The position numbers were made by a program, and so were the translations under genes. Shown one piece after another: positions 32,514 through 47,017 of a DNA stretch of 47,242 bases. The stretch spans positions 1-47,242 of the forward strand of contig JAKATE010000001.1 in the NCBI GenBank assembly GCA_021828085.1, read 5' to 3'. The number at the start of each line of letters is the position of its first letter. Positions within the stretch are counted from its first letter, which is position 1. The notes below the pieces were generated by a model. The model made no database searches. It was not told where the DNA came from and saw nothing but the letters and a program-made list of their open reading frames with translations. Origin of the DNA: Thermoplasmata archaeon (lineage in GTDB: Archaea > Thermoplasmatota > Thermoplasmata > Lutacidiplasmatales > UBA184).

Positions 32514-32999
32514 TCAGAAGCGCCGAGGAGAGTCGCGGTCGCGACCGCCCCCGCCGCCGTAGCCGCCGCCCCCGCCACCGCGTCCGTAGCCCCCGCCGCC
32601 GCCTCCGCCGCCCCCGCCACCGAAGTAGCGGCGCTCGGACTGGAACTCCTGGCTGCTCATGTCGAGGGAGGTGTTCACGCTGTCGATGGAGTCGGTGCTC
32701 TTGTTCATGCTGCCGTAGCGTCCCACGTTCAGGCGGATGTGCCCGCGGACGAGGGAGACGTAGCCGTTGTCGATGAGCACGATGTCGTCCTTGGCGATGG
32801 CTCCGATCTGCTCGTTCCACAGGGAGAGGGTGACCACGGCGGTGTCATCCCCGACGACGGCTTCCGCCACCCTTCGGGGGTCCCCGAACTTCCCCATCAC
32901 TTCCTTGGGCTCCCCCACGTTGACGACTTTCGCGAGGACATTCACTTGCTTCGAGCTCGGCGTCAGGTCCTTTACCTTGGTCAATGGCTTGTCGGTCAT
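32514..32999 (-). CDS. ssb: single-OB-fold ssDNA-binding protein (Sulfolobus-type SSB) with Gly/Arg/Tyr-rich tail
   Basis: VNVLAKVVNVGEPKEV...VVGDDTAVVTLSLWNEQIGAIAKDDIVLIDNGYVSLVRGHIRLNVGRYG parallels my recollection of S. solfataricus SSB. The tail is GGGGGGGGGGYGRGGGGGGYGGGGGRDRD. Start is ATG 32999, preceded by GAAGGAAAG. Confidence 0.8.
   Translation of the reverse strand: MTDKPLTKVKDLTPSSKQVNVLAKVVNVGEPKEVMGKFGDPRRVAEAVVGDDTAVVTLSLWNEQIGAIAKDDIVLIDNGYVSLVRGHIRLNVGRYGSMNKSTDSIDSVNTSLDMSSQEFQSERRYFGGGGGGGGGGGYGRGGGGGGYGGGGGRDRDSPRRF
32544..32624. repeat. GCC/GCCGCC triplet low-complexity tract (encodes Gly-rich tail)
   Basis: ACCGCCCCCGCCGCCGTAGCCGCCGCCCCCGCCACC... inside the ssb 3' end. 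Confidence 0.6.
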
Positions 33000-33174
33000 G
33001 GCGTTCTTTCCTTCTTTCGGTTGGTTCGATCCGGCGGGTCCCGCCGCGCTCCCCATGGACGACCCGACACCCAGATTGGTGCGTTTGCGTAGAACAAACA
33101 GACCGCACGGAGGCAGGGGCCGAACGAGGGGCGCTTCGAGATCTTTCGGATCGGACACGTCACAACGGGGGGTG

Positions 33175-36748: not shown

Positions 36749-39700
36749 ATGAGGAACCGATGGCTGCGTTGGATCGCCCTGGCCGTGCCGCTCTTGCTGC
36801 TTCCCACCACCCTCCTGCCCCTCGCCTCCCTGGGGCTCGGGACCGCCCTTCCCGGCGCCGGGACGGACCCGGCCGAGCTCGTGCGCGCAGGCACCGACGC
36901 GCCACTCAGCGCGCAGACGGACGTGAACGTGAGCATCGCGCCCCCGTCCTCCGATCTCGAGGCTGGCGCTTCCCTCGCGCTCCAGGCCGAGGTCACGCGC
37001 GTCGACCCCGCGTACAACATCACCATCGAGAGCTACCATTGGAGCCTCAGCAACGCTTCCGGAGGAGCGAGCCTCTCGCCGGCCTACGAGGCCCGCACCA
37101 CACTCTCGACCCTCTCCACGACGCCCGCCTCCAGGCTCCAGGTCGAGCTCACCGTCACCGGCTGGATCGATGACCTCTACTTCACCCCCTTCTCCGACGG
37201 GGCGACGGCCGTCTTCGCCGTCCTGGCCCCGCTGAGCCTCGGGCCGCTCAACGCGACCCCGGATCCCGCCACGCCGCAGGAGGAGGTCCACCTCTCGGTC
37301 CCGATCTCCGGCGGCGCCGCCCCCTACCAGCTCCAATGGTCCTTCGGAGACGGGACCCGGGCGGAGACCACGGCCTCCGGGGCCGGGACGGCGGAGATCT
37401 CGCACCTCTTCGCGGCCGGCACCTTCCTCCCCTCGGTCACGATCACCGACGGGGACGGGCAGAACTCCACGACCAGTTCCTCGAGCTCCGTCGTCGTGGG
37501 GGAGGCGCTCCGGGCGAGCGTCGCCGGGCCGCCCGGAGGGGACGTGGGCGCCCCCCAGGTCTTCCACGCCTCGGTGGCGGGGGGGACCCCGCCGTACTCG
37601 TACCTCTGGACCGACTCGGAGGGCGCCAGCACACCGGGGAACTCGAGCTTCTCCATCGTCCCCGCGCAACCCGGGGTCCTGGGCGTCTCCCTCGAGGTCA
37701 CCGACTCGGCCGGGAACCAGTTCCTGGCCCCCACCTTCGATGTCCAGGTCCGCCCGAGCCCGACCCTTACGCTCCGTTCGTCCCTCCCGGCCGTGGATCT
37801 CGGGGAGGCGCTGCCGGAGCTGATCTCGATCCAGGGGGGAACACCCCCGTACTCTGTCAGCTGGCAGCCCAGCTCGCAGGCGCCAGAGCTGACAGGGACC
37901 TTCGCCGCCCCGGGGAACTACTCCGAGCCGTTCACCCCTTCCAGCCCGGGAGAGGTGACCGCGGTCGCCAACGGGGAGGACGCGGCCGGAGAGGCGTTCG
38001 GGAGCGTCTCGATCGTCGGCCGGGTGTTGCCGGACCCCACCGCCAGCGTGACCGGACCCGCCGGCCCCCTCGTCTCCGGGGAACCCTTCACCCTCGATGC
38101 CCTCCTTTCCGGCGGCGTCGCCCCGTACAGCTGGAGCTGGCAGTTCACCCGGCCGGTCTCCGCGCTGAGCCCGACGGAGGGGTCCTCCACCGCCGCGGGC
38201 CTGGTCTCCTTCCAGGGGGAGAGCCTGGGAACCGGGACCCTCGAGGCGCTCTTCGAGGCCACGGACGCCCAGGGATTCAACTTCTCGGCCACGCTCGGGC
38301 TCAGCGAGGTCCCGCCGCTCTCCGCGAGCTTCCTCCTGCCCCTTCCTCCGGCCGAGCAGGGGGTCCCGCTCCCGCTCTCGCTGGAAGTGACCGGAGGAAC
38401 GCCCCCTTACACGGCGGAGCTCGTGGGCTCGGACGGCTCGAGCGTCTCCGCCTCCCTGCCGGGCCCTGGCTTCTTCCCCCTCCTCTGGACCCCGCGAGGG
38501 GCCGGCCCGGTGGAGCTCCGGACGACCGTCGAGGACACGGCCGGCCGGACGGCCTACGCCAACGCTTCCCTCGTGGTCGCCTCCCCACCCACCCTTTCCC
38601 TCACGCTCCCCCGCGATCCCACGGATGTGGGTCCCTACCCGCTCACCGTCGTGGTCTCGGGCGGCGCCCCTCCCTTCTCCGGCTTCCTCAACGCCTCCTC
38701 CGGCCCGAGCCTCCCGATCTCGGGGTCCGGCCCCTCCTTCCCGCTGGATCTCCTCTGGAGCGCTCCCGGGGAGGTCTACCTCCGTGTCGAACTCACCGAC
38801 GCGCTGGGGGGACGGGCCTACGCGCAGCAGAGCCTCGCGGTCTACCCCCGCCCGACGCCCGCGCTGGTGCTCTCGAGCGACCGGCTGGACGTGGGGGAGC
38901 CCTTCGAGGCCTCGCTCTCGGTGTCCGGGGGCACGGGGAGCTGGCTGAGCTCCCAGGTGAGCTTCGGGGACGGCACTGGGAGCCAGAGCGCCCCCGCCGA
39001 GCACAGCTACTCCGCTCCTGGGAGCTATCTCGTCACGGGTACGGTGGAGGACAGTGCCGGGGCGTGGGCGAACGCGACCCCCGAGACGGTAGAGGTCAAC
39101 GCGGACCCCACCGTCGCTACCGGGCTCCGGCAGCCGGGAGTCGACGCCGGCCTCGCGGCGAGCTTCTCGAGCCAGGTCTCCTTCGGCACGCCCCCGTACA
39201 GCTATCAATGGGGCTTCGGGGATGGCTCCGGGAGCAGCGAGGCCAACCCCACCCACATCTTCAGCTCGCCCGGGCTCTACGAGGTCAGCCTCACCGTCAC
39301 CGACTCGGCCGGGGTGACGGTGGCCGCCCCGACGCTCAACGTCTCGGTGGAGTCACCCCCCCAGCTCTGGATCGGGGCGAACGCCACCTACGAGGAGGTG
39401 GGACAACCGCTCACCCTCTCGGCCCAGCTCATCGGGGGTGCGCTCCCGGAGAGCGTCCTCTGGTCCCTTCCCGGGGGCCGCTCGGCGGGCGGAACCCAGG
39501 TCGGCTGGATCCCCGCCTCCCCCGGCGAGGTCGAAGTGCGCGCCTCCCTGAAGGACGCGGCGGGCGACTACGCCTTCGCCGAGCTCAATCTCACCGTGGC
39601 CCCGGCCCTTTCGCTCGGTCCCGTCCTTCTCCCCTCGCCGGTCCTCGAGTCCGGCCGGAGCTGGGCGCTCCTCGCCAACGTCGCCGGAGGCGCCGGGGGC

Positions 39701-42097
39701 CTCACGTACCTCTGGAACGTGGGGGGCCAGCAGTTCCAGGGGCTCGGTCTCTCGAGCCTCTCCTACGTCCCCGGGACGCCCGGGGAGACCAACGGCTCCC
39801 TCAGCGTCACCGATGAGCTCGGCGCCCGGGTCAGCGCCGCGTTCACCTTCCGGGTCGTCGGGCCCCCGAGCCTGACGCTGAGCTCCCCCCAGGCCCGGCT
39901 CGACGCCGGTGAGGAGGCCACGGTCGTCGCCACGGTCCAGGGGGGCTTCGGGAACCTGAGCTACCGCTGGTCCCTGCCCCCCGGGGCCTCCGGGCTCGGG
40001 AGCGGGGCGGAGGCCTCGCTGACCTTCCCGGCGGCCGGGGACTATCCGGTCGGCGTCACCGTCCTGGACGCGCTGGGGGGACAGGCGAGCGCGCTCCTGG
40101 TCCTCTCCGTCTCCTCCGCGCTGACCGTCTCGCTCCCCGCGGGTGCGCCCGCAGATACCGGCCTCGCGATTCCGATCGTCCCCTCCATCGGAGGGGGGAC
40201 GGGGCCCTTCCAGCTCGACTGGACCCTGCCACCAGGAGCCACGCAGGCCAGCAACGACACCTTCACGTTCGCCACACCGGGGACCTTCTCGGTGGAGGTG
40301 GAGGTCCACGATGCCACGGGGGCCACGGCCTCGGCCCGGGAGAACCTCAGTGTGATGCCGGCTCCCTCGGTCAGCTTCCCGGTCCTCCCGCTCAAGGCCG
40401 CCGCCGGCGTCCCCACCCCTTTCGAGGCCCTGCTGGAGGGAGGCACGTCCCCCTGGAACGCCGACTTCGAGGTGAGCGGGACGGAGAGCTTTCCGGGGGT
40501 GTTCGCCAACGTCACCTTCCCCGATCCAGGGACCTATCCGATGCTCTTCGTGGCCACGGACCTGGCCGGGGCCCGCCTGGTGCGCTCCTGGAACGTCAGC
40601 GTCCTCGCCGACCCGCTGGAACTGGCTGGGAACGTGAGCGAGCCCGCCGGGATCGTCCCGTTCGCTCCAGTGGTCCAGGGCGTGTGGAGCGGCGGGGTGG
40701 GGCCTTTCGAGGGAAGGATCGAGTGGAACGGCACCTTCCTCTCCGGCTGGGAACCGCTCGGGACCACCGGTCCTTGGAACGTCTCCGTTCCCCTCTCGTC
40801 CCCGGGCCCGGTCCGGATCGCCCTCTGGGTCGAGGATTCCCTCGGAGCCGTCGCCGAGCGCTCGTTCCAGCTCGAAGGGCTCGCCTCCCCTCCCGACCCG
40901 GAACTCTCCGCCCCGACGGGCGAGGCCGGCCTCCCGGTCACGGTGAGCGCCGAGTGGCCGAGCCCCTGGATCGCTCCCGGGGAGCGGGTATCCGAGCGCT
41001 GGTGGGGACCCGGCCTCGCCCCCTCCTCGGGGCCTTCGGCCACCTTCCTCGAGAACGCCAGCGGGGTGTACTCTCTCTCGTTCTCCGTCGTCCTCCTGGA
41101 CGAAAGCGGCGCCGCCCTGGAGAACCTCACCTTCCGGGCCCTCCTCCGCGTCGAGCCCGGGCCCCCCGTGGCGCTCGTGCCGGCCGGGGACCCCTCGGCA
41201 GGGTACGCCGGGGAGAACCTCTCGCTCCTCTTCGCCAGTGTCGACTCCTGGGGGAACGTGAACACCTCCGCGGGGGGGAACGTGACCCTCACCCCCTCAG
41301 GGGCCGGTTCCGTCGGGGTAGGGGACCTCTCCGGTGGCTACGTCCGCTTCCCGGTGAGCTCCACCTCCGCGGGGAACGTGAGCTACGCGGTCTCCGCCCC
41401 CGGCCTCCAGGGCACGAGCGTTGCGATCCTCTGGACGGCCGACGCGATGAGGGGGACGATCCGTGTCCTCTCGTGGAGCCGGGAAGGCTCCTCGCTCTGG
41501 CTCAACCTGAGCGTCGTCGACGTCTTCGGGAACCCGCTCTCCGGCTACCCCGTCGAGGCGAGCGCACCGGGGCTCCCGACCGTGGGCGGGACCGCCGAGG
41601 GCGGGACGCTCTCGCTCCTCCTCCCCGGGGCGGCCTCCGTGGGGGAGGTGACCCTCACCGGGCAGCACGGGGCCTCGACCACCCTGGAGCTACCGGGTCC
41701 GGCGACCCCCGAGGGGGGCTGGGTGGAGAACGCGCTCCTCGCCCTCTTCCTCGGGGGGGTCCTCGGCGCCGCGCTCTTCTTCCGGGTGCGCTCCTGGCGG
41801 CGCCGTCGCCGCCCCCCGGAGGACCGGACTCCTGACCCGCTCCTCGAGGCCGTCGAGGAGTCGCCCGGTGAGGAGGTCGGGGCCCTGGGGGAGATCGCCC
41901 GTCTCCGCGGCTGGAGCGGGAACGATGTGGAGGGAGGGCTCTCCGCCCTTGAGCGCGCCGGCCAGGTCCACCGCGAGCCCGACGGGGCCGGGGGTACGCG
42001 CTACTACCCGGGACCGGCGCCGACCCCTGGAGAGCCGGCCACGACCGATCCCCCGGCCCCCGGGGAGGAAGCCCGGACGGAGGCGGAGCATGCGTGA
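36749..42097 (+). CDS. giant (1782-aa) secreted PKD/Ig-like repeat surface protein with C-terminal transmembrane anchor and ~100-aa cytoplasmic tail
   Basis: Signal peptide MRNRWLRWIALAVPLLLLPTTLLPLASLG. At least 14 hand-counted copies of a GG-x-x-P-Y/F-x-x-x-W motif about 85-100 aa apart, three with the PKD-type FGDG (WSFGDG, VSFGDG, WGFGDG). 30 hand-counted N-x-S/T sequons. Big-like domains near the end (SVDSWGNV, VVDVFGNP). TM helix ALLALFLGGVLGAALFF at 41732-41782, then RRRRR. Confidence 0.85.
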   Translation: MRNRWLRWIALAVPLLLLPTTLLPLASLGLGTALPGAGTDPAELVRAGTDAPLSAQTDVNVSIAPPSSDLEAGASLALQAEVTRVDPAYNITIESYHWSLSNASGGASLSPAYEARTTLSTLSTTPASRLQVELTVTGWIDDLYFTPFSDGATAVFAVLAPLSLGPLNATPDPATPQEEVHLSVPISGGAAPYQLQWSFGDGTRAETTASGAGTAEISHLFAAGTFLPSVTITDGDGQNSTTSSSSSVVVGEALRASVAGPPGGDVGAPQVFHASVAGGTPPYSYLWTDSEGASTPGNSSFSIVPAQPGVLGVSLEVTDSAGNQFLAPTFDVQVRPSPTLTLRSSLPAVDLGEALPELISIQGGTPPYSVSWQPSSQAPELTGTFAAPGNYSEPFTPSSPGEVTAVANGEDAAGEAFGSVSIVGRVLPDPTASVTGPAGPLVSGEPFTLDALLSGGVAPYSWSWQFTRPVSALSPTEGSSTAAGLVSFQGESLGTGTLEALFEATDAQGFNFSATLGLSEVPPLSASFLLPLPPAEQGVPLPLSLEVTGGTPPYTAELVGSDGSSVSASLPGPGFFPLLWTPRGAGPVELRTTVEDTAGRTAYANASLVVASPPTLSLTLPRDPTDVGPYPLTVVVSGGAPPFSGFLNASSGPSLPISGSGPSFPLDLLWSAPGEVYLRVELTDALGGRAYAQQSLAVYPRPTPALVLSSDRLDVGEPFEASLSVSGGTGSWLSSQVSFGDGTGSQSAPAEHSYSAPGSYLVTGTVEDSAGAWANATPETVEVNADPTVATGLRQPGVDAGLAASFSSQVSFGTPPYSYQWGFGDGSGSSEANPTHIFSSPGLYEVSLTVTDSAGVTVAAPTLNVSVESPPQLWIGANATYEEVGQPLTLSAQLIGGALPESVLWSLPGGRSAGGTQVGWIPASPGEVEVRASLKDAAGDYAFAELNLTVAPALSLGPVLLPSPVLESGRSWALLANVAGGAGGLTYLWNVGGQQFQGLGLSSLSYVPGTPGETNGSLSVTDELGARVSAAFTFRVVGPPSLTLSSPQARLDAGEEATVVATVQGGFGNLSYRWSLPPGASGLGSGAEASLTFPAAGDYPVGVTVLDALGGQASALLVLSVSSALTVSLPAGAPADTGLAIPIVPSIGGGTGPFQLDWTLPPGATQASNDTFTFATPGTFSVEVEVHDATGATASARENLSVMPAPSVSFPVLPLKAAAGVPTPFEALLEGGTSPWNADFEVSGTESFPGVFANVTFPDPGTYPMLFVATDLAGARLVRSWNVSVLADPLELAGNVSEPAGIVPFAPVVQGVWSGGVGPFEGRIEWNGTFLSGWEPLGTTGPWNVSVPLSSPGPVRIALWVEDSLGAVAERSFQLEGLASPPDPELSAPTGEAGLPVTVSAEWPSPWIAPGERVSERWWGPGLAPSSGPSATFLENASGVYSLSFSVVLLDESGAALENLTFRALLRVEPGPPVALVPAGDPSAGYAGENLSLLFASVDSWGNVNTSAGGNVTLTPSGAGSVGVGDLSGGYVRFPVSSTSAGNVSYAVSAPGLQGTSVAILWTADAMRGTIRVLSWSREGSSLWLNLSVVDVFGNPLSGYPVEASAPGLPTVGGTAEGGTLSLLLPGAASVGEVTLTGQHGASTTLELPGPATPEGGWVENALLALFLGGVLGAALFFRVRSWRRRRRPPEDRTPDPLLEAVEESPGEEVGALGEIARLRGWSGNDVEGGLSALERAGQVHREPDGAGGTRYYPGPAPTPGEPATTDPPAPGEEARTEAEHA

Positions 42098-42500
42098 GCA
42101 GGCCCCGGTCTCCCGGGTCGCACTCGCCACCCTCCTCATCGCCGGTCTGTTCCTCGCGGGCCTCTCGATCGGGGGCGCGCCCCGGGAGACCCCTCCCGCG
42201 CGCCCCTCCGCGGGCGGGCTCGCTGCCGTGCATCCGGAGCTCGTCCACCCGTCGGACAACGCCACGGGCAACCTCACCGCCGCGCTCAACCGGGTCCTCT
42301 TCCTCACCGGGCTCGTCTCCGGCGCGGTGGTGACCCTCGTCTGGGTCCGCGTGGCGCTGAGCTGGTTCTCGCACGACCCGACGCGCAAGGTGCAGGCGAA
42401 GGAGCGCGCGCGCGACGCGCTGCTCGGCAGCCTGGTCCTCCTCGCGGCCGTCACGGGACTCGCCTGGGGGCTCGCCCACTGGGTCCTCACGGGGGTCTGA
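42090..42500 (+). CDS. VirB2/TrbC-like pilin candidate (signal peptide + two-helix hairpin)
   Basis: ATG 42090 overlaps the upstream stop by 8 nt. Signal peptide VALATLLIAGLFLAGLSIGGAP. Helix 1 LTAALNRVLFLTGLVSGAVVTLVWVRVALSWF, basic loop SHDPTRKVQAKERARD, helix 2 ALLGSLVLLAAVTGLAWGLAHWVLTGV. Assignment rests on topology and context only. Confidence 0.6.
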   Translation: MREQAPVSRVALATLLIAGLFLAGLSIGGAPRETPPARPSAGGLAAVHPELVHPSDNATGNLTAALNRVLFLTGLVSGAVVTLVWVRVALSWFSHDPTRKVQAKERARDALLGSLVLLAAVTGLAWGLAHWVLTGV

Positions 42501-42511
42501 GCGGGGAGCTC

Positions 42512-43672
42512 ATGGGGATCGGGGCGCTGGTCAAGGCGGTCCTCTTCGCCCTCTTCGGCGCGCTCTCCGCCGCGGTCTCGCTCGCGGTCGAGCCGACCTA
42601 CGACCGGCTCTTCGTCCCGGAGATGAGCCCGTCAGCGCTCTTCGCCCCCTGGACCGGGGGCGGTCTCTTCGGCGGGGCCGTCCGCATGAGCTCCTTCCTC
42701 CTCGTCAACGTCGTCGACCCGTTCGCCGTCCTGGTCATCGCGGGCGTGGGGGTGCTCTACCTCGCCCGGGCCAGCCTCCCCTCGCTCGCGGGAAGGCTCC
42801 AGGACCTGGGTCCCCGTCTCCTCCTCGGGATCCTCATCGCCAACCTCGCGGTCCCCCTCGCCCAGGTCATCTTCCTCCTCGGCGCCGCGGTCTACCCGGT
42901 CTTCTACGCCTACCAGGGAGGGGCCTGGCAGAGCTACGCCAACCTCGTCGGGCCGGCCGGGCTCAGCGTCGCCTGGGACAACGGGCTGCTCGCGCTCATC
43001 GGGGCCCTGGCGCTGCTCGGGATGACGCTCCTCCTCGCCTTCCTCGTCGCCTTCCGGGACGCCCTCCTCGCGGTCCTCCTCGTCCTGTTGCCGATCTTCA
43101 CGCTCTTCTGGCCCTGGCCGTTCGCCTCCTCGCTCGCCTCCCGCGGTTGGAAGCTCTTCGTCGAGATGACCTTCCTGCCGTGCTTCCTGGTGGTCCCCCT
43201 GGCCCTCGCCGTCGGGTCCCAGAGCGTGCTCATCGTCCTCGCCCTCTTCGGTCTCGCCCTGGGCATGCCGAGCCTCCTCTCCCTCGGAGGGCGGGGACTC
43301 GGAGCCCTGGGCTCCCCCTCCCCCGCCGGGTTCGTGGCGGCCGGGCTCGGGCGAGGTCCGGGGATGGGGGTGGATTCAGTGGGGGGAGTGGCCCAGCACG
43401 GCACCCGTTCCTTCCGGTCCTCCCTCCCCCGCGGGGGTGCTGGAGCACGTCCCACGGCCCCCTGGCCCTCCGCCGCGCTGGGGCCGGCCTCGGCCGTGGT
43501 CTGGGGGATCGGGGAAGGCGTGGGCAAGCTGGCCCATCATCTGGGGAGCGCCGCGAACCGGCATCTCGGGCACGGCGGCGGGGGCTCCGGAGCGTCTCCC
43601 GCGATGAGGACGCGCCCCCCCTCCGCGCTGCGGGACGTCCCGGGAGCGGCCCGAGGGCGTCCCGTGGCATGA
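42512..43672 (+). CDS. polytopic (~7 helix) membrane protein, VirB6/TrbL/CedA-like candidate, with G/P/R/A-rich C-terminal tail
   Basis: ATG lies 11 nt after the previous stop, with GGGGAG upstream. About seven hydrophobic helices in the first ~270 aa. The last ~110 aa are low complexity. Confidence 0.6.
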   Translation: MGIGALVKAVLFALFGALSAAVSLAVEPTYDRLFVPEMSPSALFAPWTGGGLFGGAVRMSSFLLVNVVDPFAVLVIAGVGVLYLARASLPSLAGRLQDLGPRLLLGILIANLAVPLAQVIFLLGAAVYPVFYAYQGGAWQSYANLVGPAGLSVAWDNGLLALIGALALLGMTLLLAFLVAFRDALLAVLLVLLPIFTLFWPWPFASSLASRGWKLFVEMTFLPCFLVVPLALAVGSQSVLIVLALFGLALGMPSLLSLGGRGLGALGSPSPAGFVAAGLGRGPGMGVDSVGGVAQHGTRSFRSSLPRGGAGARPTAPWPSAALGPASAVVWGIGEGVGKLAHHLGSAANRHLGHGGGGSGASPAMRTRPPSALRDVPGAARGRPVA

Positions 43673-43678
43673 ACGGAG

Positions 43679-44488
43679 ATGTCCCGGGCGCTGGAGGTGC
43701 CCTTGCCGGAACGGCAGGGGCACCGGATGCTGATGGGTCCCTTCCAGGGGCCCACCGAGCTCCTCCGCGCCCTCCTCGGAGCCGGCGCCGGGCTCCTCCT
43801 TGCGCTCGCGGTGGGCCCGATCGAGGGCCTGCTACTGGCCGCTGCGTTCCTCGGGCTCAACCTGGTCCGCTGGAGGGACGAACCTCTCTGGGACCTCCTG
43901 CGCGATGCGCTCGCCTACCAGCTGCGTCAGGCGCTGACCTCGAGCCGCGCCCCACCCGCGGCGCTCGGCATCGACACCGACCTCCTGGTCGACCCGGAGG
44001 GAGGACGCTGGGCCGCCTGGGAGGCCCCCCTGCTCCCCGTCTCGGGCCACGACGTGAGGGACCTCTTCGCCGAGGCGCAGCGGCTCCTGGCCGCGCTTCC
44101 CGCGGGATGGGGGGAGGTCTTCCTGGCCCGCCGCGCCGTCCCCTGGACGGCCGTTCTCCCCTCCGGTCCTCCACGCCCCGCCGCCGAGCGGCTCGCGTGG
44201 GAAGGTTACCGGACGCTGCTGCGCGAGCTCACGCGGAACTGCTACCGCCACCGGCTGTTCGTGCTCGTGCCCGCCCGGTCCCTGGCACCCCCCAAGGACC
44301 CGGACGGGCCGGCGCCCTTCCATCCACCGGCGGGTTTCACCCGGGTCCGCGGCGCGGAACTTCGGGTCGTCGCTCGCTGGGACGAACCCATCGTATCCCC
44401 CGAGCCCGTCCGTCTCCCCCCTTCGCACCTGCCCTCGCCTCCCCCGGGAACCCGTTCGGGCCGTGGACCGGCTACGCTACCGCGGTAG
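43679..44488 (+). CDS. membrane-anchored protein, VirB3-like N-terminal hairpin plus soluble domain
   Basis: ATG lies 6 nt after the previous stop. LLRALLGAGAGLLLALAVGPIEGLLLAAAFLGLNLVRW is a helical hairpin. The soluble part (GIDTDLLVDPEGGRWAAWEAPLLPVSGHDVRDLFAEAQRLLAALPAGWGEVFL) resembles VirB4 N-domain-style sequence. The last ~25 codons are P/S/R low complexity. Confidence 0.5.
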   Translation: MSRALEVPLPERQGHRMLMGPFQGPTELLRALLGAGAGLLLALAVGPIEGLLLAAAFLGLNLVRWRDEPLWDLLRDALAYQLRQALTSSRAPPAALGIDTDLLVDPEGGRWAAWEAPLLPVSGHDVRDLFAEAQRLLAALPAGWGEVFLARRAVPWTAVLPSGPPRPAAERLAWEGYRTLLRELTRNCYRHRLFVLVPARSLAPPKDPDGPAPFHPPAGFTRVRGAELRVVARWDEPIVSPEPVRLPPSHLPSPPPGTRSGRGPATLPR

Positions 44489-44802
44489 CCCTCCTTTCCG
44501 GGGCGCTCGGCTTCTACGGCGTCGCCGAAGGGACGACCCCCTCGCTCGTCCTCCTCGTCTGGGTCCTCCTCGTGGCCCGGATGGGGAACTCGCCTCCGGC
44601 GGGACTGCCGAGCGGGGGGAAGTACGGGGGGGCCCGCTGGGCCCCCGCGGTCGCGGCCGGGCTTCTCGGGGCTACACTGTACCTCGACCCGGCCCTTCCG
44701 CTGGGGGAGGGGGCGCGCACCCTTCTCCTCGCCTGCGTCTCCGCCGGCCTCGCTTGGGCGCTCGCCCCCCGGGGGTCCTTCCACGCCGGGGAGGGGGGCT
44801 GA
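44461..44802 (+). CDS. small multi-helix membrane protein; 5' boundary undefined (no canonical start before first helix)
   Basis: Frame 1 reads PWTGYATAVALLSGALGFYGVAEGTTPSLVLLVWVLLVARMG...WAPAVAAGLLGATLYL...ARTLLLACVSAGLAWALAP with 3-4 helices. The first in-frame ATG/GTG/TTG is GTG 44572. The stop TGA 44800-44802 shares its A with the next ATG. Confidence 0.45.
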   Translation, partial: PWTGYATAVALLSGALGFYGVAEGTTPSLVLLVWVLLVARMGNSPPAGLPSGGKYGGARWAPAVAAGLLGATLYLDPALPLGEGARTLLLACVSAGLAWALAPRGSFHAGEGG

Positions 44803-46493
44803 TGCCCGGCTCGCCGCCGTCGAGGGGGGAGACGCCGGAAGGGGTGATCGCGGCGGACGGCCTGACCTACCTGCGCCTCTTCCGGCGTTTTCCCACCCGG
44901 GCTTCGGTGCCCGGCTTCCCGGCCCTCGGGCGGACGGACGCCCCGCTCGAGTCGGTCCTGCGTCTGCGCGGGATCCCTCCCGCCGAGGCGCTCCGCCAGG
45001 TCCGCGAGGACCTCGCCCATCTCGAGGCGGACCTCCGCGGCCTCCGGGACCGTTCCGATCCTCGCCGGGCAACGCTGGAGCCGCAGCTCGAGGGGGCTGA
45101 GCGGCTCGAGCACGGGCTCGTGCGACGCCAGACCCGCCTCTGGGAGGTGCTCTGGGGGCTCCGGGAGTCCTCCCGACGGGGCAGGCCTTCCACCCTCGCC
45201 GGGACCCAGGGAGCCTTGGAGTCCGAGGGGGCCCGCTTCTGGAACTCCCGCTGGAGGAGCGCACCCTTCCGCGAGGCCCTCCGCCCGGGGGGGCGGACAC
45301 GGCCGGAGTGGTTCCACCGGCTCGACGAGGAGGGGCTGGCCGCGCTCCTCCCGCTCTGGGAGGACCGCGCGACGGAGCTCGAGGGTGTGCTGCTGGGGAT
45401 GCACGCCGAGAACGGGACCCCGGTCTTCCTCGACCGCTTCCGGCACCCGCACCACTCCTCCGCCATCCTCGGGGAGACCGGCAGCGGCAAGAGCTATGCG
45501 AGCGCGCTCGGGCTCCTGCGTGCGCGCTGGGCGCACCCGGACCTCAGCGTCTTCGTCCTCGACCCGCTGGGCGGCCTGGCACGCTTCGTGGGTCTCCTCG
45601 GAGGGCATGTGGTGGTTCCCGGCCGGGGGGCCCTTCCGATCAACCCGCTCGATCCGGCCACCTCCGGCGGGGATGTGCGCCGGAAGATCGCGACGGTCTC
45701 GGTGATGCTCCGTGCGCTCTACCCCTCGCTGCACGATGAGGAGGCGGCCGTGCTCGACGTGGCACTCGAGGAGCTCTACCGGCGGTCAGGGGACCGCTCC
45801 CCGCAGCTGGGAGACCTCCTCACGTCGCTTAGGCAGCGGCTCCCGGCCGACCACCGGTTGCTCGCCCTCCTCCAGACCGCGGTCACGGGCTCCCTTGCCG
45901 GGCTCGACGGTCCGACACGATGGGACCTCGGGGGACCGCTCTGGGGCTTCGACCTCTCCCGGATCACGCCGGCCGAGCTCCCCTTCCTCCTCGTGCTCCT
46001 GCTCGACTTCATCGAGGGGGAGCTCCGGGGGCGGGAGGGGCCGAAGCTGCTCATCATCGACGAGGTCCACTACCTCTTCCGCTCCTCCGCCACCGCCGGT
46101 TACCTCGACCAGCTCGTCCGCCACGTCCGTCACTTCCGCACCGGTGTCGAGCTGCTCAGCCAGAGCCCCAACGACCTCACTGGGTCCGCGGCGGGGCGCG
46201 CCATCCTGGCCAACCTGGATTCCCTGCTCCTGCTCCGATTGAGGGAAGGAGGGCGCTCGCTCGGGGCGATCTACCCGCTGGCCGAGGAGGAGCGCGCAAG
46301 CCTTCGAGCGGCGCCGCTCCCCCGGGACCAGGGGTATTCGGGGGGACTGCTGCTTACCGGGGGTCGCCACTTGCCGGTCGCCATTCTCGCCTCTCCCGCC
46401 GAGGATGCCCTCCTTCGGGCGGGCTTCGACCGGGAGGGGAGCGAGCTCGCGGAAAACTCCGAGGGGAGCCGAGCGGGCGTGTCGGACCCGTGA
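44802..46493 (+). CDS. VirB4/TrbE/CedB-type conjugation ATPase
   Basis: GETGSGKS (Walker A, 45471-45494), FVLDPLGG, LPINPLDP, LLIIDEVHYLF (Walker B, 46047-46070), ELLSQSPNDL. The N-terminal domain has GLTYLRLFRRFPTRASVPGF...ESVLRLRGIPPAEA, typical of VirB4-like proteins. Confidence 0.8.
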   Translation: MPGSPPSRGETPEGVIAADGLTYLRLFRRFPTRASVPGFPALGRTDAPLESVLRLRGIPPAEALRQVREDLAHLEADLRGLRDRSDPRRATLEPQLEGAERLEHGLVRRQTRLWEVLWGLRESSRRGRPSTLAGTQGALESEGARFWNSRWRSAPFREALRPGGRTRPEWFHRLDEEGLAALLPLWEDRATELEGVLLGMHAENGTPVFLDRFRHPHHSSAILGETGSGKSYASALGLLRARWAHPDLSVFVLDPLGGLARFVGLLGGHVVVPGRGALPINPLDPATSGGDVRRKIATVSVMLRALYPSLHDEEAAVLDVALEELYRRSGDRSPQLGDLLTSLRQRLPADHRLLALLQTAVTGSLAGLDGPTRWDLGGPLWGFDLSRITPAELPFLLVLLLDFIEGELRGREGPKLLIIDEVHYLFRSSATAGYLDQLVRHVRHFRTGVELLSQSPNDLTGSAAGRAILANLDSLLLLRLREGGRSLGAIYPLAEEERASLRAAPLPRDQGYSGGLLLTGGRHLPVAILASPAEDALLRAGFDREGSELAENSEGSRAGVSDP

Positions 46494-46549: not shown

Positions 46550-47017
46550 ATGTCCGACGTTTCTCCCTCCTCCCCGCCGCGCGCACGTCCGACCCCCTGG
46601 TCCGTCCGGAAGATCGTCGAGCAGGTGACGGGCCAGCCTCTCAGCGCGGTGCAGGGGAACGGGCCGGCACCCCCCCTCCGCGGGAGGTCGCCGGGGGAGC
46701 CTCGCCTGGGCCTGCCGGCCTTCCTGCCCGGCGGCCTCGGTGAGGACGCCCCCGCTTCCCTCCCCCTCCCCCATCCTCTCCATTTCGGCCCGCTCGGCGA
46801 CGAGCAGAGTGGGGAGCGCGCGCTCCCCCATGGGGAGGGGCACCGGGCCGGGGGGGACCGCCCCGCCTCCAAGGGACCCCGCTCCGGCGCCCTCGAGCTC
46901 GAGCGCGTCTACCTCCACTATCTGCTCCTCCACCTGGACCGGCTCGGCGAGCCCGCGCTCAAGTACCTGCGGCATGCCGTGGAAGAGGAGTGCCGGGACC
47001 GGGGCTGGGAGCCCTAG
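46550..47017 (+). CDS. hypothetical protein
   Basis: 155-aa ORF with G/C-rich third positions, its own promoter-like box, and a helical C-terminus (LELERVYLHYLLLHLDRLGEPALKYLRHAVEEECRDRGW). No motif recognised. Confidence 0.45.
   Translation: MSDVSPSSPPRARPTPWSVRKIVEQVTGQPLSAVQGNGPAPPLRGRSPGEPRLGLPAFLPGGLGEDAPASLPLPHPLHFGPLGDEQSGERALPHGEGHRAGGDRPASKGPRSGALELERVYLHYLLLHLDRLGEPALKYLRHAVEEECRDRGWEP

Follow-up and report, generated by a model that had tools for sequence, protein, structure and literature searches.

A putative VirB2-class pilin precursor in a chromosomal, probably T4SS-derived gene cassette of an uncultured Thermoplasmata archaeon

The window analysed here, i.e., the whole stretch of 47,242 nucleotides from a Thermoplasmata archaeon (contig JAKATE010000001.1), carries a cassette that encodes, in this order, a PKD-repeat surface protein, a pilin candidate, a seven-helix membrane protein, two small proteins and a VirB4-like ATPase. 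The genes, and the segments of the pilin gene, are the following:

36749..42097, + strand: PKD-repeat surface protein, 1782 aa, first gene of the cassette (Pfam PKD_4 8.9e-48, PKD 1.1e-47)
42090..42500, + strand: pre-pilin candidate gene, 136 aa, VirB2-like, T4SS_pilin family
42090..42182, + strand: signal-like segment, residues 1-31 (hydropathy; AF2 helix 7-28)
42258..42278, + strand: NATGNLT, with N-glycosylation sequons at N57 and N61, capping the N-terminus of helix 1
42261..42365, + strand: helix 1, residues 58-92 (AF2, invariant columns)
42366..42416, + strand: basic turn region FSHDPTRKVQAKERARD, residues 93-109 (alignment)
42378..42491, + strand: helix 2, residues 97-134 (AF2, alignment)
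42512..43672, + strand: polytopic membrane protein, 386 aa, with about seven long helices followed by a disordered C-terminal tail rich in Gly/Ala/Pro/Arg
43679..44488, + strand: 269-aa protein, N-terminal hydrophobic segment 27-63, a divergent cassette member
44455..44802, + strand: small membrane protein, encoded immediately 5' of the ATPase gene and overlapping its start; start codon uncertain
44802..46493, + strand: VirB4-like AAA+ ATPase, 563 aa, Walker A GETGSGKS (224), Walker B LLIIDE (416)
46550..47017, + strand: conserved hypothetical protein, 155 aa, closing the cassette

The 136-aa reading frame proposed in a preliminary description is borne out by translation and, as judged from its GC3 and its conservation across hundreds of homologues, is a genuine coding gene, present in one copy within the window. 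Its GC content by codon position is 0.76/0.54/0.94 (GC3 0.94), compared with 0.71/0.69/0.89 and 0.88/0.72/0.68 for the two long antisense ORFs. The gene begins within the end of the preceding 1782-aa gene, its ATG overlapping that gene's stop codon (ATGCGTGA); translational coupling of the two is therefore probable.

The encoded protein runs from a signal-like helix through a linker and the sequons to helix 1, the basic turn and helix 2. The signal-like segment consists of an n-region MREQAPVSR, an h-region VALATLLIAGLFLAGL and a c-region SIGGAP; translation and hydropathy (helix at about residues 9-31) thus confirm the N-terminal helix ending in IGGAP, and cleavage is predicted near G28-A30 (about 28-31). 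Across the family this N-terminus varies yet stays hydrophobic throughout. The linker comprises about 25-29 aa rather than the ~35 aa first estimated. An AlphaFold2 model (core pLDDT 82-86) places helices at residues 7-28, 58-92 and 97-134. The two long hydrophobic helices originally described do form a hairpin in the model, but their strictly apolar spans are limited to 69-86, with the invariant R68 and R87 on either side, and 110-133. Similarly, the 16-residue basic loop SHDPTRKVQAKERARD exists (residues 94-109), but only about four residues (93-96) are non-helical in the model, and most of the “loop” belongs to the charged start of helix 2. The basic turn region is the best-conserved stretch of the family (invariant S91, W92, F93, S94, D96, K100, A103, K104, R106 and D109; the basic segment has a family mean net charge of +1.8) and is predicted to face the cytoplasm while the protein is in the membrane and the lumen while it is in a pilus. 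Helix 2 leads into a C-terminus, WVLTG, that is conserved across the family (...HWVLTGV in the window protein).

Both sequons announced ahead of helix 1 are present (N57, bases 42258-42266; N61, bases 42270-42278), but only that of N61 is universal in the close family. Its column is a sequon in 124/124 close members, and N61 itself is invariant in the alignment (A1). The N57 position is a sequon in 43 of 144 family members and aligns with an NGS/NAS/NST sequon of distant relatives. Taken more broadly, an N-x-S/T lies at most 16 residues upstream of the invariant R68 in 141/144 members. Since, in addition, the membrane and cytoplasmic proteins of the cassette contain only 0-1 sequons each, as against 30 in the upstream surface protein, the pattern appears to be more than chance. 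By topology, N57 and N61 are predicted to lie outside the cell. Indeed, three independent features point to one and the same topology: the charged n-region followed by a hydrophobic helix, the sequon on the outer side in 141/144 members and the basic loop on the inner side.

The search for relatives returned 324 homologues, and the protein occurs in at least 144 Thermoplasmata GTDB species representatives. Among the 80 retained loci, the label is Thermoplasmata, Thermoplasmatales or Lutacidiplasmatales in 78 and “bacterium” in two. In some relatives the pilin domain is fused to large extracellular domains on its N-terminal side, and arrays of pilins also occur. Distant relatives lie in cassettes of the same kind, with an AAA_10/TraG-P-loop ATPase.

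The assignment to a pilin class comes from the family as a whole. PF18895 (T4SS_pilin; profile length 71, cut-off 26.6 bits), which published work employs as a profile for VirB2-like pilins (PMC12102498), matches more often and with better scores across the family than any other of 24,736 models and is the top Pfam match in 18/44 close homologues. Scores of 23.0, 22.7 and 23.6 bits are reached by the three closest relatives, their matches covering profile positions 2-70 of 71 (8-70 in one), and the family consensus reaches 26.1 bits, just under the cut-off, over nearly the whole profile. Moreover, the family profile recruits P0131, P0133, P0134 and P0141 from 1.84 billion proteins at E 5e-15 to 3e-8, and distant relatives recruited in this way (E 1e-8 to 1e-15), these four among them, exceed the cut-off (28.0, 33.9, 28.0, 32.8 and 31.3 bits). 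The window protein itself gives no PF18895 match even at E<=10 and none in NCBIfam; its only Pfam matches are weak ones to DUF4235, DUF1345 and DUF6703. Neither phmmer nor profile searches matched it to the solved pilin chains (VirB2, TraA, TrbC, CedA1 8DFU, TedC 8DFT), hhalign against the Agrobacterium-type VirB2 family was not significant and no better than the reversed control, and Foldseek with the pilin model returned non-significant, generic helical hairpins only (best E 0.74). The reading as a pilin of VirB2/TrbC topology is thus supported at family level, through PF18895 similarity and operon context, but not by a match of the window protein itself. Lack of both profile and structural similarity had been named as what would speak against it: the former similarity is found at family level, while the Foldseek and solved-pilin searches were negative. 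Homology of the candidate to T4SS pilins is, in our judgement, very probable.

The cassette was compared in 84 related loci, recovery differing by gene. Sequence similar to the PKD-repeat protein lies upstream of the pilin in 70/84 (tblastn; 24-46% identity, partly PKD repeats); in the window, the PKD protein has an N-terminal signal-like helix, a C-terminal TM anchor (~1658-1681) and a cytoplasmic tail by hydropathy, and is a candidate adhesin. The polytopic membrane protein gene lies directly 3' of the pilin in 84/84 loci, and its product is by position the equivalent of VirB6/TrbL/CedA/TedA. Its likeness to VirB6 is only suggestive: a precomputed PF19590 (TrbL_3) annotation on 14 of 120 listed family members and on two L001/L002 gene products was not reproduced by hmmscan, and Foldseek with a mediocre AF2 model (pLDDT 64) gave five weak PDB matches, two of them TrwI/VirB6 chains (E 8-10). 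The 269-aa protein matches no Pfam or NCBIfam family; in 13 loci a homologue occupies the same place, and in others a gene of 230-260 aa is found there. The small membrane protein is a positional analogue of VirB3; its frame (frame 1) has a GC3 of 0.85 at 44400-44700, no ATG, GTG or TTG occurs between 44395 and 44572, and its homologues in L005-L009 share the motif AV.LLSGA.G..G. The ATPase matches the NCBIfam models conju_CD1110 (2.8e-25), VirB4_plasma (2.8e-16), VirB4_CagE (8.7e-10), TraC (7.7e-8) and CedD (5.2e-5) and Pfam DUF87 (2e-5). A mechanical 676-aa version of its ORF, starting at 44463, was rejected as over-extended by start and frame analysis. The ATPase is found in 62/84 loci; those without it end at most about 1 kb past the membrane-protein gene, except L009 (too short) and L038. 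The 155-aa protein, for which no Pfam or NCBIfam family was matched, has tblastn matches in 21 loci, mostly directly after the ATPase (exceptions L005 and L034).

The setting of the cassette is chromosomal. Housekeeping genes (TrpRS, GlnA, CPSase, TruA, IDH) lie upstream of it in the window and also flank the cassettes of L001-L004, and no integrase or relaxase-type domain was seen among the Pfam domains of the scanned flanks at these five places. The window contains no tRNA gene, its GC content is uniform (0.70-0.75), and the adjacent TrpRS gene is syntenic in nine related genomes. Within the cassette, Pfam and NCBIfam revealed no relaxase, coupling protein, ParA, Rad50 or HerA, and no effector-like gene is linked to it.

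Among known systems, Ted of Pyrobaculum calidifontis (Thermoproteales; TedC, PDB 8DFT; PMC9905601) shares a small pre-pilin that carries a Sec-type signal sequence and is disordered at its N-terminal end before a two-helix hairpin, a pilin gene immediately 5' of that of a seven-TM protein (tedC directly precedes tedA; PMC9905601), a VirB4-like ATPase nearby and a chromosomal location without relaxase (here, none among the Pfam domains of the scanned flanks). However, sequence similarity to TedC is undetectable by PDB sequence and profile searches, the host is a Thermoplasmatota (mesophilic soil MAGs), a giant PKD-repeat protein is present while ParA, Rad50 and HerA neighbours are absent, and the pilin has a conserved N-glycosylation sequon and a longer, highly conserved inter-helix segment. 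Ced (Aeropyrum pernix; Sulfolobales/Desulfurococcales; CedA1, PDB 8DFU), a chromosomal DNA-import system, likewise combines a VirB2-like two-helix pilin with polytopic CedA and a VirB4/HerA-like CedB. In contrast, CedA1 has no signal peptide and is unprocessed (PMC9905601, PMC11823120) and shows no sequence similarity to our candidate; conjugal VirB4 models also fit our ATPase far better than the weakly matching CedD model. The PF18895 family, abundant in Patescibacteria, is the only curated one with a reproducible collinear profile match, its pilins accompany chromosomally encoded T4SS that lack relaxases, and both groups have pilin arrays. The window protein and its close clade nevertheless fall under the cut-off, the host is archaeal, and the conserved sequon and the motif SWFSxDxTKKVQAKxRARDA mark a distinct subfamily.

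Several other readings must be weighed against a surface pilin. A VirB2-related protein could remain in the membrane as part of a translocon that lacks a pilus, either as a small integral subunit or as a short stalk, an arrangement found in monoderm bacterial T4SSs; Sulfolobus CedA1 was reportedly assumed to be membrane-bound until pili became visible in Aeropyrum. No Ced pili have ever been observed in Sulfolobales, although a CedA1 homologue is present there (PMC11823120). Moreover, the best-conserved part of the candidate is the cytoplasmic or interfacial basic segment, where the ATPase or the membrane protein might dock, and hhalign gives a weak local similarity (P=0.013) between helix 2 and one TM helix of the neighbouring protein, which hints at packing in one complex. 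We consider this rather unlikely, given that a near-universal extracellular sequon and a variable exposed N-terminal tail are expected of a surface polymer subunit, that relatives carry big extracellular domains and pilin arrays occur, and that the two archaeal homologues of this class with solved structures both form pili (PMC9905601). An unrelated two-TM protein, e.g., a holin-like or DUF4235/DUF1345-like accessory of the PKD protein, would account for the weak DUF matches and the negative searches against solved pilins, and two-helix hydrophobic hairpins can match one another by composition. Yet PF18895 stands out among all models and matches collinearly over its whole length, its cut-off is exceeded by relatives linked at E down to 1e-15, and the VirB4-like ATPase is linked in nearly all loci that extend far enough, which makes this explanation very improbable.

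A mating pilin that serves a mobile element, either a plasmid or an integrated conjugative element, rather than the host would be in line with the conjugal-transfer families (conju_CD1110) that best match the ATPase and with the distant relative P0131 (L087/L088), which adjoins genes for a MazE antitoxin and a phage-type integrase. The housekeeping flanks free of integrase and relaxase-type Pfam domains, the absence of tRNA genes, the uniform GC content, the TrpRS synteny and the spread over at least 144 species all render it improbable, and the cassette is probably not a plasmid transfer apparatus. More weight, though still that of a minority view, goes to a true pilus used for adhesion or biofilm formation, delivery of proteins or effectors, or interspecies contact: no DNA-processing gene was seen in the cassette, unlike in many Ted loci, the giant adhesin candidate is an integral member, and the relaxase-less T4SS of Patescibacteria with PF18895 pilins is thought to be co-opted, with a proposed role in interspecies contact (PMC12102498). 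On the other hand, Ced, which alone among chromosomal archaeal T4SS derivatives has been characterised experimentally, imports DNA (PMC9905601, PMC11823120), and effector-like genes are not linked here.

We thus regard it as fairly probable that the gene encodes a VirB2-class pilin precursor in a T4SS-derived apparatus that is chromosomal and vertically maintained in uncultured soil/peat Thermoplasmata of high GC content, and lean slightly towards its forming an extracellular filament. The product is most likely a sugar-decorated subunit of a conjugation-type (VirB2-like) tube, and the cassette is best read as a third, Thermoplasmata-specific Ced/Ted-like system. In such a system, the N-terminal helix would insert the pilin via Sec with the N-terminus in the cytoplasm and probably be removed near residues 28-31. 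The linker, rich in Pro and Ala, and the helix 1 cap would then lie outside the membrane, where N61, and here also N57, may be N-glycosylated, as the near-universal sequon suggests. Helices 1 and 2 would form a membrane hairpin with the basic segment on the cytoplasmic face, in keeping with the positive-inside rule. By analogy with F, T, CedA1 and TedC pili, the VirB4-like ATPase and the seven-helix protein would extract the pilins, probably with lipids, and polymerise a tube whose lumen is lined by the basic segment and whose surface is coated by the glycosylated N-terminus. The co-transcribed PKD protein may provide cell-cell adhesion. That the cassette mediates DNA exchange is a tentative proposal, somewhat short of an even chance; as no relaxase or integrase domain was found in the scanned, housekeeping flanks, exchange would most likely take place between cells of the same species, as in Ced/Ted. 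A DNA-exchange machine so far known only from heat-loving Thermoproteota is thereby suggested in a second archaeal phylum.

The Agrobacterium VirB2/TrbC pilins (PF04956; PDB 8CUE, 8EXH) differ from the Thermoplasmata protein by an inter-helix segment about 13 residues shorter, and the profile-profile comparison is not significant; VirB2 is not known to be glycosylated, unlike what the sequon would imply here. They are nonetheless collinear with it (signal peptide, polar N-terminus, helix 1, basic turn, helix 2) and likewise share an operon with proteins of the VirB4 and VirB6 types. In both, helix 1 ends in I/L-S-W-(M)-F and the C-terminus contains T-G-G/T-G.

With a GC content of about 72 %, the window is rich in mechanical ORFs (117 of at least 150 aa), and real genes were told from artefacts by their codon-position GC. 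The ORF at 42090..42500 (+), translated as MREQAPVSRVALATLLIAGLFLAGLSIGGAPRETPPARPSAGGLAAVHPELVHPSDNATGNLTAALNRVLFLTGLVSGAVVTLVWVRVALSWFSHDPTRKVQAKERARDALLGSLVLLAAVTGLAWGLAHWVLTGV (136 aa), shows values of 0.76/0.54/0.94, resembling those of the TrpRS and GlnA genes; the same frame upstream of its ATG gives 0.64/0.85/0.84. Two long antisense ORFs at 41655-42479 and 41690-42490, one with values of 0.88/0.72/0.68 and one with 0.71/0.69/0.89, were dismissed as genes. The candidate pilin gene is real and its family is conserved. Its ATG and the stop codon of the preceding 1782-aa gene overlap (ATGCGTGA), and in the window it belongs to a cassette that includes:

36749-42097 (+), PKD-repeat surface protein of 1782 aa
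42090-42500 (+), candidate VirB2-like pre-pilin of 136 aa
42512-43672, membrane protein of 386 aa
44395-44802 (+), small membrane gene preceding the ATPase, in the frame of 43147
44802 (ATG), start of the VirB4-like ATPase of 563 aa

A word-indexed search retrieved 324 homologues of the pilin, none of them named; those with a label come from Thermoplasmata or Euryarchaeota MAGs, on contigs of up to 2.3 Mb. In the alignment the N-terminus is variable and the core very conserved, with N61, R68, W85, R87, V88, S91-S94, D96, K100, A103, K104, R106, D109, A110, G113, A120, G123, W126, L128, T134 and G135 invariant. When 1.84 billion cluster representatives were searched exhaustively with HMMER, the family profile matched just 34 at E<=1e-3, which makes the family a narrow one. 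In GTDB species genomes a scan located 144 loci encoding it, i.e., at least 144 species; two of the 80 loci kept bear the label "bacterium", and the other 78 are assigned to Thermoplasmata, Thermoplasmatales or Lutacidiplasmatales. The Lutacidiplasmatales live in soil and have about 69 % GC (PMC9287336), which fits the composition of the window.

The protein has the size and signal sequence of a VirB2-class precursor (typically about 100–160 aa): its 136 residues open with a basic n-region, followed by a 16-residue hydrophobic h-region as judged by hydropathy, and AF2 places a helix at 7-28. Two further helices are modelled at 58-92 and 97-134 (44-sequence alignment; mean pLDDT 75, core 82-86), with apolar cores at 69-86 and 110-133 by hydropathy, and the loop has a mean net charge of +1.8 across the family. 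Together with the predicted side of the sequon, this gives the second trait of the class, two long hydrophobic helices joined by a short positive turn, with both termini outside. Members of this class assemble into a hollow filament outside the cell, as a rule together with stoichiometric lipid. The sequence features listed in the preliminary description, which had proposed a pilin of VirB2/TrbC topology with two sequons, were all found in the protein. Since the AF2 helix limits are 7-28 and 58-92, however, the linker measures about 25–29 aa rather than about 35, and what had been taken for a basic loop is mostly the charged start of helix 2.

Searched directly, the window protein gave nothing meaningful in Pfam, NCBIfam, PADLOC or the PDB, and it does not match PF18895 (T4SS_pilin) even at E<=10. 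Similarity to PF18895 is seen at the level of the family: 18 of the 44 aligned homologues scanned singly match it, far ahead of any other family.

Matches of the pilin family to PF18895 (curated cut-off 26.6 bits; profile length 71)
P0002, P0005 and P0007, closest relatives (66–73 % identical): 23.0, 22.7 and 23.6 bits; profile positions 2-70 (P0005: 8-70) of 71
Family-core consensus (hmmemit): 26.1 bits, E 9.4e-6
P0131, P0133, P0134 and P0141, distant relatives: 28.0, 33.9, 28.0 and 32.8 bits
177-aa gene in the related locus L089: 31.3 bits

The family profile recruits the same four distant relatives at E 4.6e-15, 2.1e-13, 3.6e-11 and 2.6e-8, respectively, and on the hairpin the regions matched by it and by PF18895 coincide. 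PF18895 and PF04956 serve together as VirB2-like pilin profiles (PMC12102498). From these alignments the pilin appears to be a borderline, distinct PF18895 subfamily. TrbC/VirB2 proper (PF04956) was not matched in the family scans, with the exception of one distant relative at E 0.056. The profile comparison with the VirB2 family that had been suggested at the outset, run with hhalign against 120 VirB2 homologues, did no better than its reversed control (P 0.1-0.46 in both cases) and was non-significant in local, low-MAC and global mode, against either a single VirB2 or the 120-member alignment; the narrowness of this alignment (Neff about 1.6-3.7) makes it a weak test.

Solved pilins of the TraA, CedA1 and TedC type were likewise not recovered: profile searches of all PDB chains with the close-family alignment and a broader one matched no pilin, and for CedA1 or TedC neither phmmer nor the profiles gave a hit at E<=10 in the full set of PDB chains, where 8DFU and 8DFT should be represented; NCBIfam likewise yielded none. 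Such an outcome is not unexpected, because the Ced and Ted pilins resemble neither one another nor VirB2 in sequence (PMC9905601). The AF2 monomer did yield the anticipated two-helix hairpin, but Foldseek found only generic helical hairpins for it in the PDB (best E 0.74, no pilin in the top 50), with a query model that held the signal helix and disordered linker and a hairpin that has little discriminating signal. An unrelated hairpin protein is the rival reading that these searches leave to be weighed. On its side stand the missing solved-pilin and Foldseek matches; on the other stand the family-level PF18895 matches and the VirB4-like context. It is on PF18895 and gene context that the proposed class membership rests. 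Identity with VirB3 was also considered and is unlikely in view of the signal peptide, the T4SS_pilin matches, which point elsewhere, and the separate small membrane gene that directly precedes the ATPase.

Synteny was followed by tblastn of the window cassette proteins against 84 related loci, and the called genes in L001-L004 and L089-L090 show the same order. A large surface protein comes first (70/84 loci), then the pilin (84/84) and, beginning a few to about 60 bases past the pilin stop, the membrane protein (84/84). Two divergent small genes separate the latter from the ATPase, which is found in 62 of the 84 loci; the rest, bar L009 and L038, stop within about 1 kb of the end of the membrane-protein gene. 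A protein of about 155–170 aa closes the order. Pilins of this class are encoded with a VirB4 ATPase and a VirB6/TrbL-type polytopic protein; here a VirB4-like ATPase and a putatively VirB6-like polytopic protein stand beside the pilin in all loci of sufficient length, and the synteny of the pilin with the VirB4-like ATPase is invariant.

The true start of the ATPase overlaps the stop of the small frame-1 gene (TGATG). The mechanical 676-aa ORF at 44463-46493 (+) is over-extended, its first approximately 340 bases being read in another frame according to codon-position GC. In NCBIfam the ATPase matches conju_CD1110 (2.8e-25), VirB4_plasma (2.8e-16), VirB4_CagE (8.7e-10), TraC (7.7e-8) and CedD (5.2e-5); it also matches Pfam DUF87 and contains Walker A and B motifs. 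The small gene before it is conserved in L005-L009 with the motif "AV.LLSGA.G..G...TPSLV", its conserved part running from about 44455 and overlapping the end of a 269-aa gene (stop 44488). No ATG, GTG or TTG start occurs for it in 44395-44572, a gap that could be explained by an assembly error or frameshift, by initiation at a non-canonical codon, or by programmed frameshifting out of the 269-aa gene.

In the 386-aa neighbour, about seven long helices are followed by a disordered tail. Precomputed PF19590 (TrbL_3) matches exist for 14 of the 120 listed proteins of its family (e.g., P0153, P0171 and P0174) and for two gene products of L001/L002, but hmmscan with the current Pfam-A, on 27 and then 7 members, did not return TrbL_3 even at E<=1 for proteins with precomputed matches. 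The neighbour-family profile found nothing in the PDB, and Foldseek with the AF2 model gave no more than five weak matches in the PDB, including two TrwI/VirB6 chains at a non-significant E of 8-10. As TrbL_3 was not reproduced and Foldseek was weak, we call the neighbour VirB6-like by position and topology, homology being only suggestive. A resemblance of the CedA1/CedA type between the pilin and the neighbour's N-terminus was absent by hhalign. A weak match (P 0.013, non-significant alone) pairs pilin helix 2 ARDALLGSLVLLAAVTGLAWG (42414-42476) with an internal helix of the neighbour FRDALLAVLLVLLPIFTLFWP (43052-43114, residues 181-201); although not N-terminal here, it recalls the reported CedA1/CedA and VirB2/VirB6 similarity.

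There are 30 N-x-S/T sequons in the PKD-repeat protein, or 1.7 per 100 aa. At its C-terminus a TM helix or anchor precedes about 100 aa of cytoplasmic tail rich in Arg, Pro and Glu. Lineages differ in the length of the protein (about 650 to about 2180 aa), and its place before the pilin gene is kept.

The cassette is set in the chromosome. On its 5' side lie TrpRS, GlnA, an Ssb-like OB protein, an Lrp/AsnC regulator, TruA, carbamoyl-phosphate synthase, IDH, Sua5 and PurK; TrpRS adjoins it in nine related genomes, and in others it is next to fibrillarin, DNA ligase, OMP decarboxylase and similar genes. The window contains neither tRNA genes nor a compositional break, and a general domain scan of the cassette flanks in the window and other genomes saw no integrase or relaxase domains. 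Like Ced and Ted, the cassette is a chromosomal and non-mobile locus that combines a pilin with a polytopic protein and a VirB4-like ATPase, no relaxase being seen in the scanned flanks. A mobile-element pilin, the rival reading here, has to be set against this neighbourhood; on its side is a low-GC relative of the cassette (L087 2214-14058 / L088 62-10631; a 2183-aa surface protein, a 67-aa gene, the pilin P0131, then genes of 314, 209 and 602 aa), which adjoins a phage-type integrase, with a mazE antitoxin gene nearby. The pilin family may thus also occur on integrated mobile elements and probably descended from integrative conjugative elements, while the Thermoplasmata cassette looks domesticated, as has likewise been argued for Ced and Ted (PMC9905601). 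The Ssb-like gene (32514-33158 (-), OB-fold ssDNA-binding, Pfam 4e-14), 3.6 kb upstream of the cassette past GlnA and TrpRS, is probably a housekeeping, RPA-like gene.

All but three of the 144 family members (141) have an N-x-S/T sequon within 16 residues upstream of the invariant R68, and two of those three are N-terminally truncated fragments. In the close family it occupies the N61 column (124/124); in distant relatives it stands one helical turn earlier, aligned with window N57, and the window's clade carries both. The signal sequence and the positive-inside rule, given the mean loop charge, predict an extracellular location for this side. The corresponding part of VirB2-type pili faces the outer surface, as established for F, T, CedA1 and TedC pili, and for the CedA1 and TedC pili Beltran et al. 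described just a diffuse density at the periphery, "consistent with glycosylation" (PMC9905601). In the present family the nearly universal sequon, placed where helix 1 begins, points to one defined candidate site for such a modification.

The Ced/Ted class is defined by DNA import between cells for recombinational repair, with induction by DNA damage. Read from its genes alone, the Thermoplasmata system may be likened to them in its working, yet it is no member of either by sequence or taxon: their hosts are Thermoproteota, whereas the cassette hosts bear Thermoplasmata-type labels in all but the two "bacterium" loci. In the model that we favour, the window protein would be a Sec-inserted, probably signal-peptidase-processed and N-glycosylated VirB2-like pilin; the VirB4-like ATPase, together with the polytopic protein, would pull it out of the membrane and assemble it into a tube, with the PKD-repeat protein as putative adhesin. 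Given that neither relaxase nor mobile-element genes were seen in the flanks scanned, intercellular DNA exchange is the proposed function. For this system we infer cleavage and glycosylation of the pilin, the formation of a filament, the orientation of its lumen and the transfer of DNA. The protein could also be a membrane-resident subunit, and a pilus might serve adhesion, for which the surface protein next door would be suited, or protein delivery, instead of the exchange of DNA. Going beyond the pilus model, we tentatively suggest, with rather more doubt than confidence, a third, independently diverged and domesticated T4SS in uncultured soil and peat Thermoplasmata, whose pilin would be obligatorily N-glycosylated at the helix 1 cap and co-expressed with a giant PKD adhesin.

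To our knowledge, structures of archaeal conjugation-type pili come from only two hyperthermophilic Thermoproteota. The current literature describes Ced and Ted in Thermoproteota only, with the suggestion that their mechanism is possibly a common trait of that phylum (PMC11823120), and literature searches returned no description of the present cassette or pilin in Thermoplasmata. The main interest lies in conjugation-type pili, and possible DNA exchange, in a second archaeal phylum, and in a conserved glycosylation site. A chromosomal cassette of VirB2-VirB6-VirB4 type that is conserved in at least 144 species of Thermoplasmata would bring the machinery to mesophilic soil organisms and supply a concrete gene set with which to test DNA exchange. 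If the third-system proposal is true, the exchange of chromosomal DNA through pili would be widespread among archaea, mesophiles included, and not peculiar to hyperthermophilic Thermoproteota; its pilus would also be the first of the conjugative type to have a defined glycosylation site. The family also connects archaeal pilins with their PF18895 counterparts in Patescibacteria, a link relevant to the spread of VirB2-like pilins among monoderm-type envelopes.

In distant relatives (L089 8451-12203 and L090 2374-6126; P0135, P0138, P0142 and P0146) pilin-domain genes form arrays, in which a 177-aa T4SS_pilin is followed by proteins of 339, 326 and 406 aa. These longer proteins consist of an N-terminal domain of about 200 aa, a Gly/Ser/Trp-rich linker (GGSWWSGGG...) and a C-terminal pilin hairpin, and may be minor or tip pilins that display the domain on the filament.
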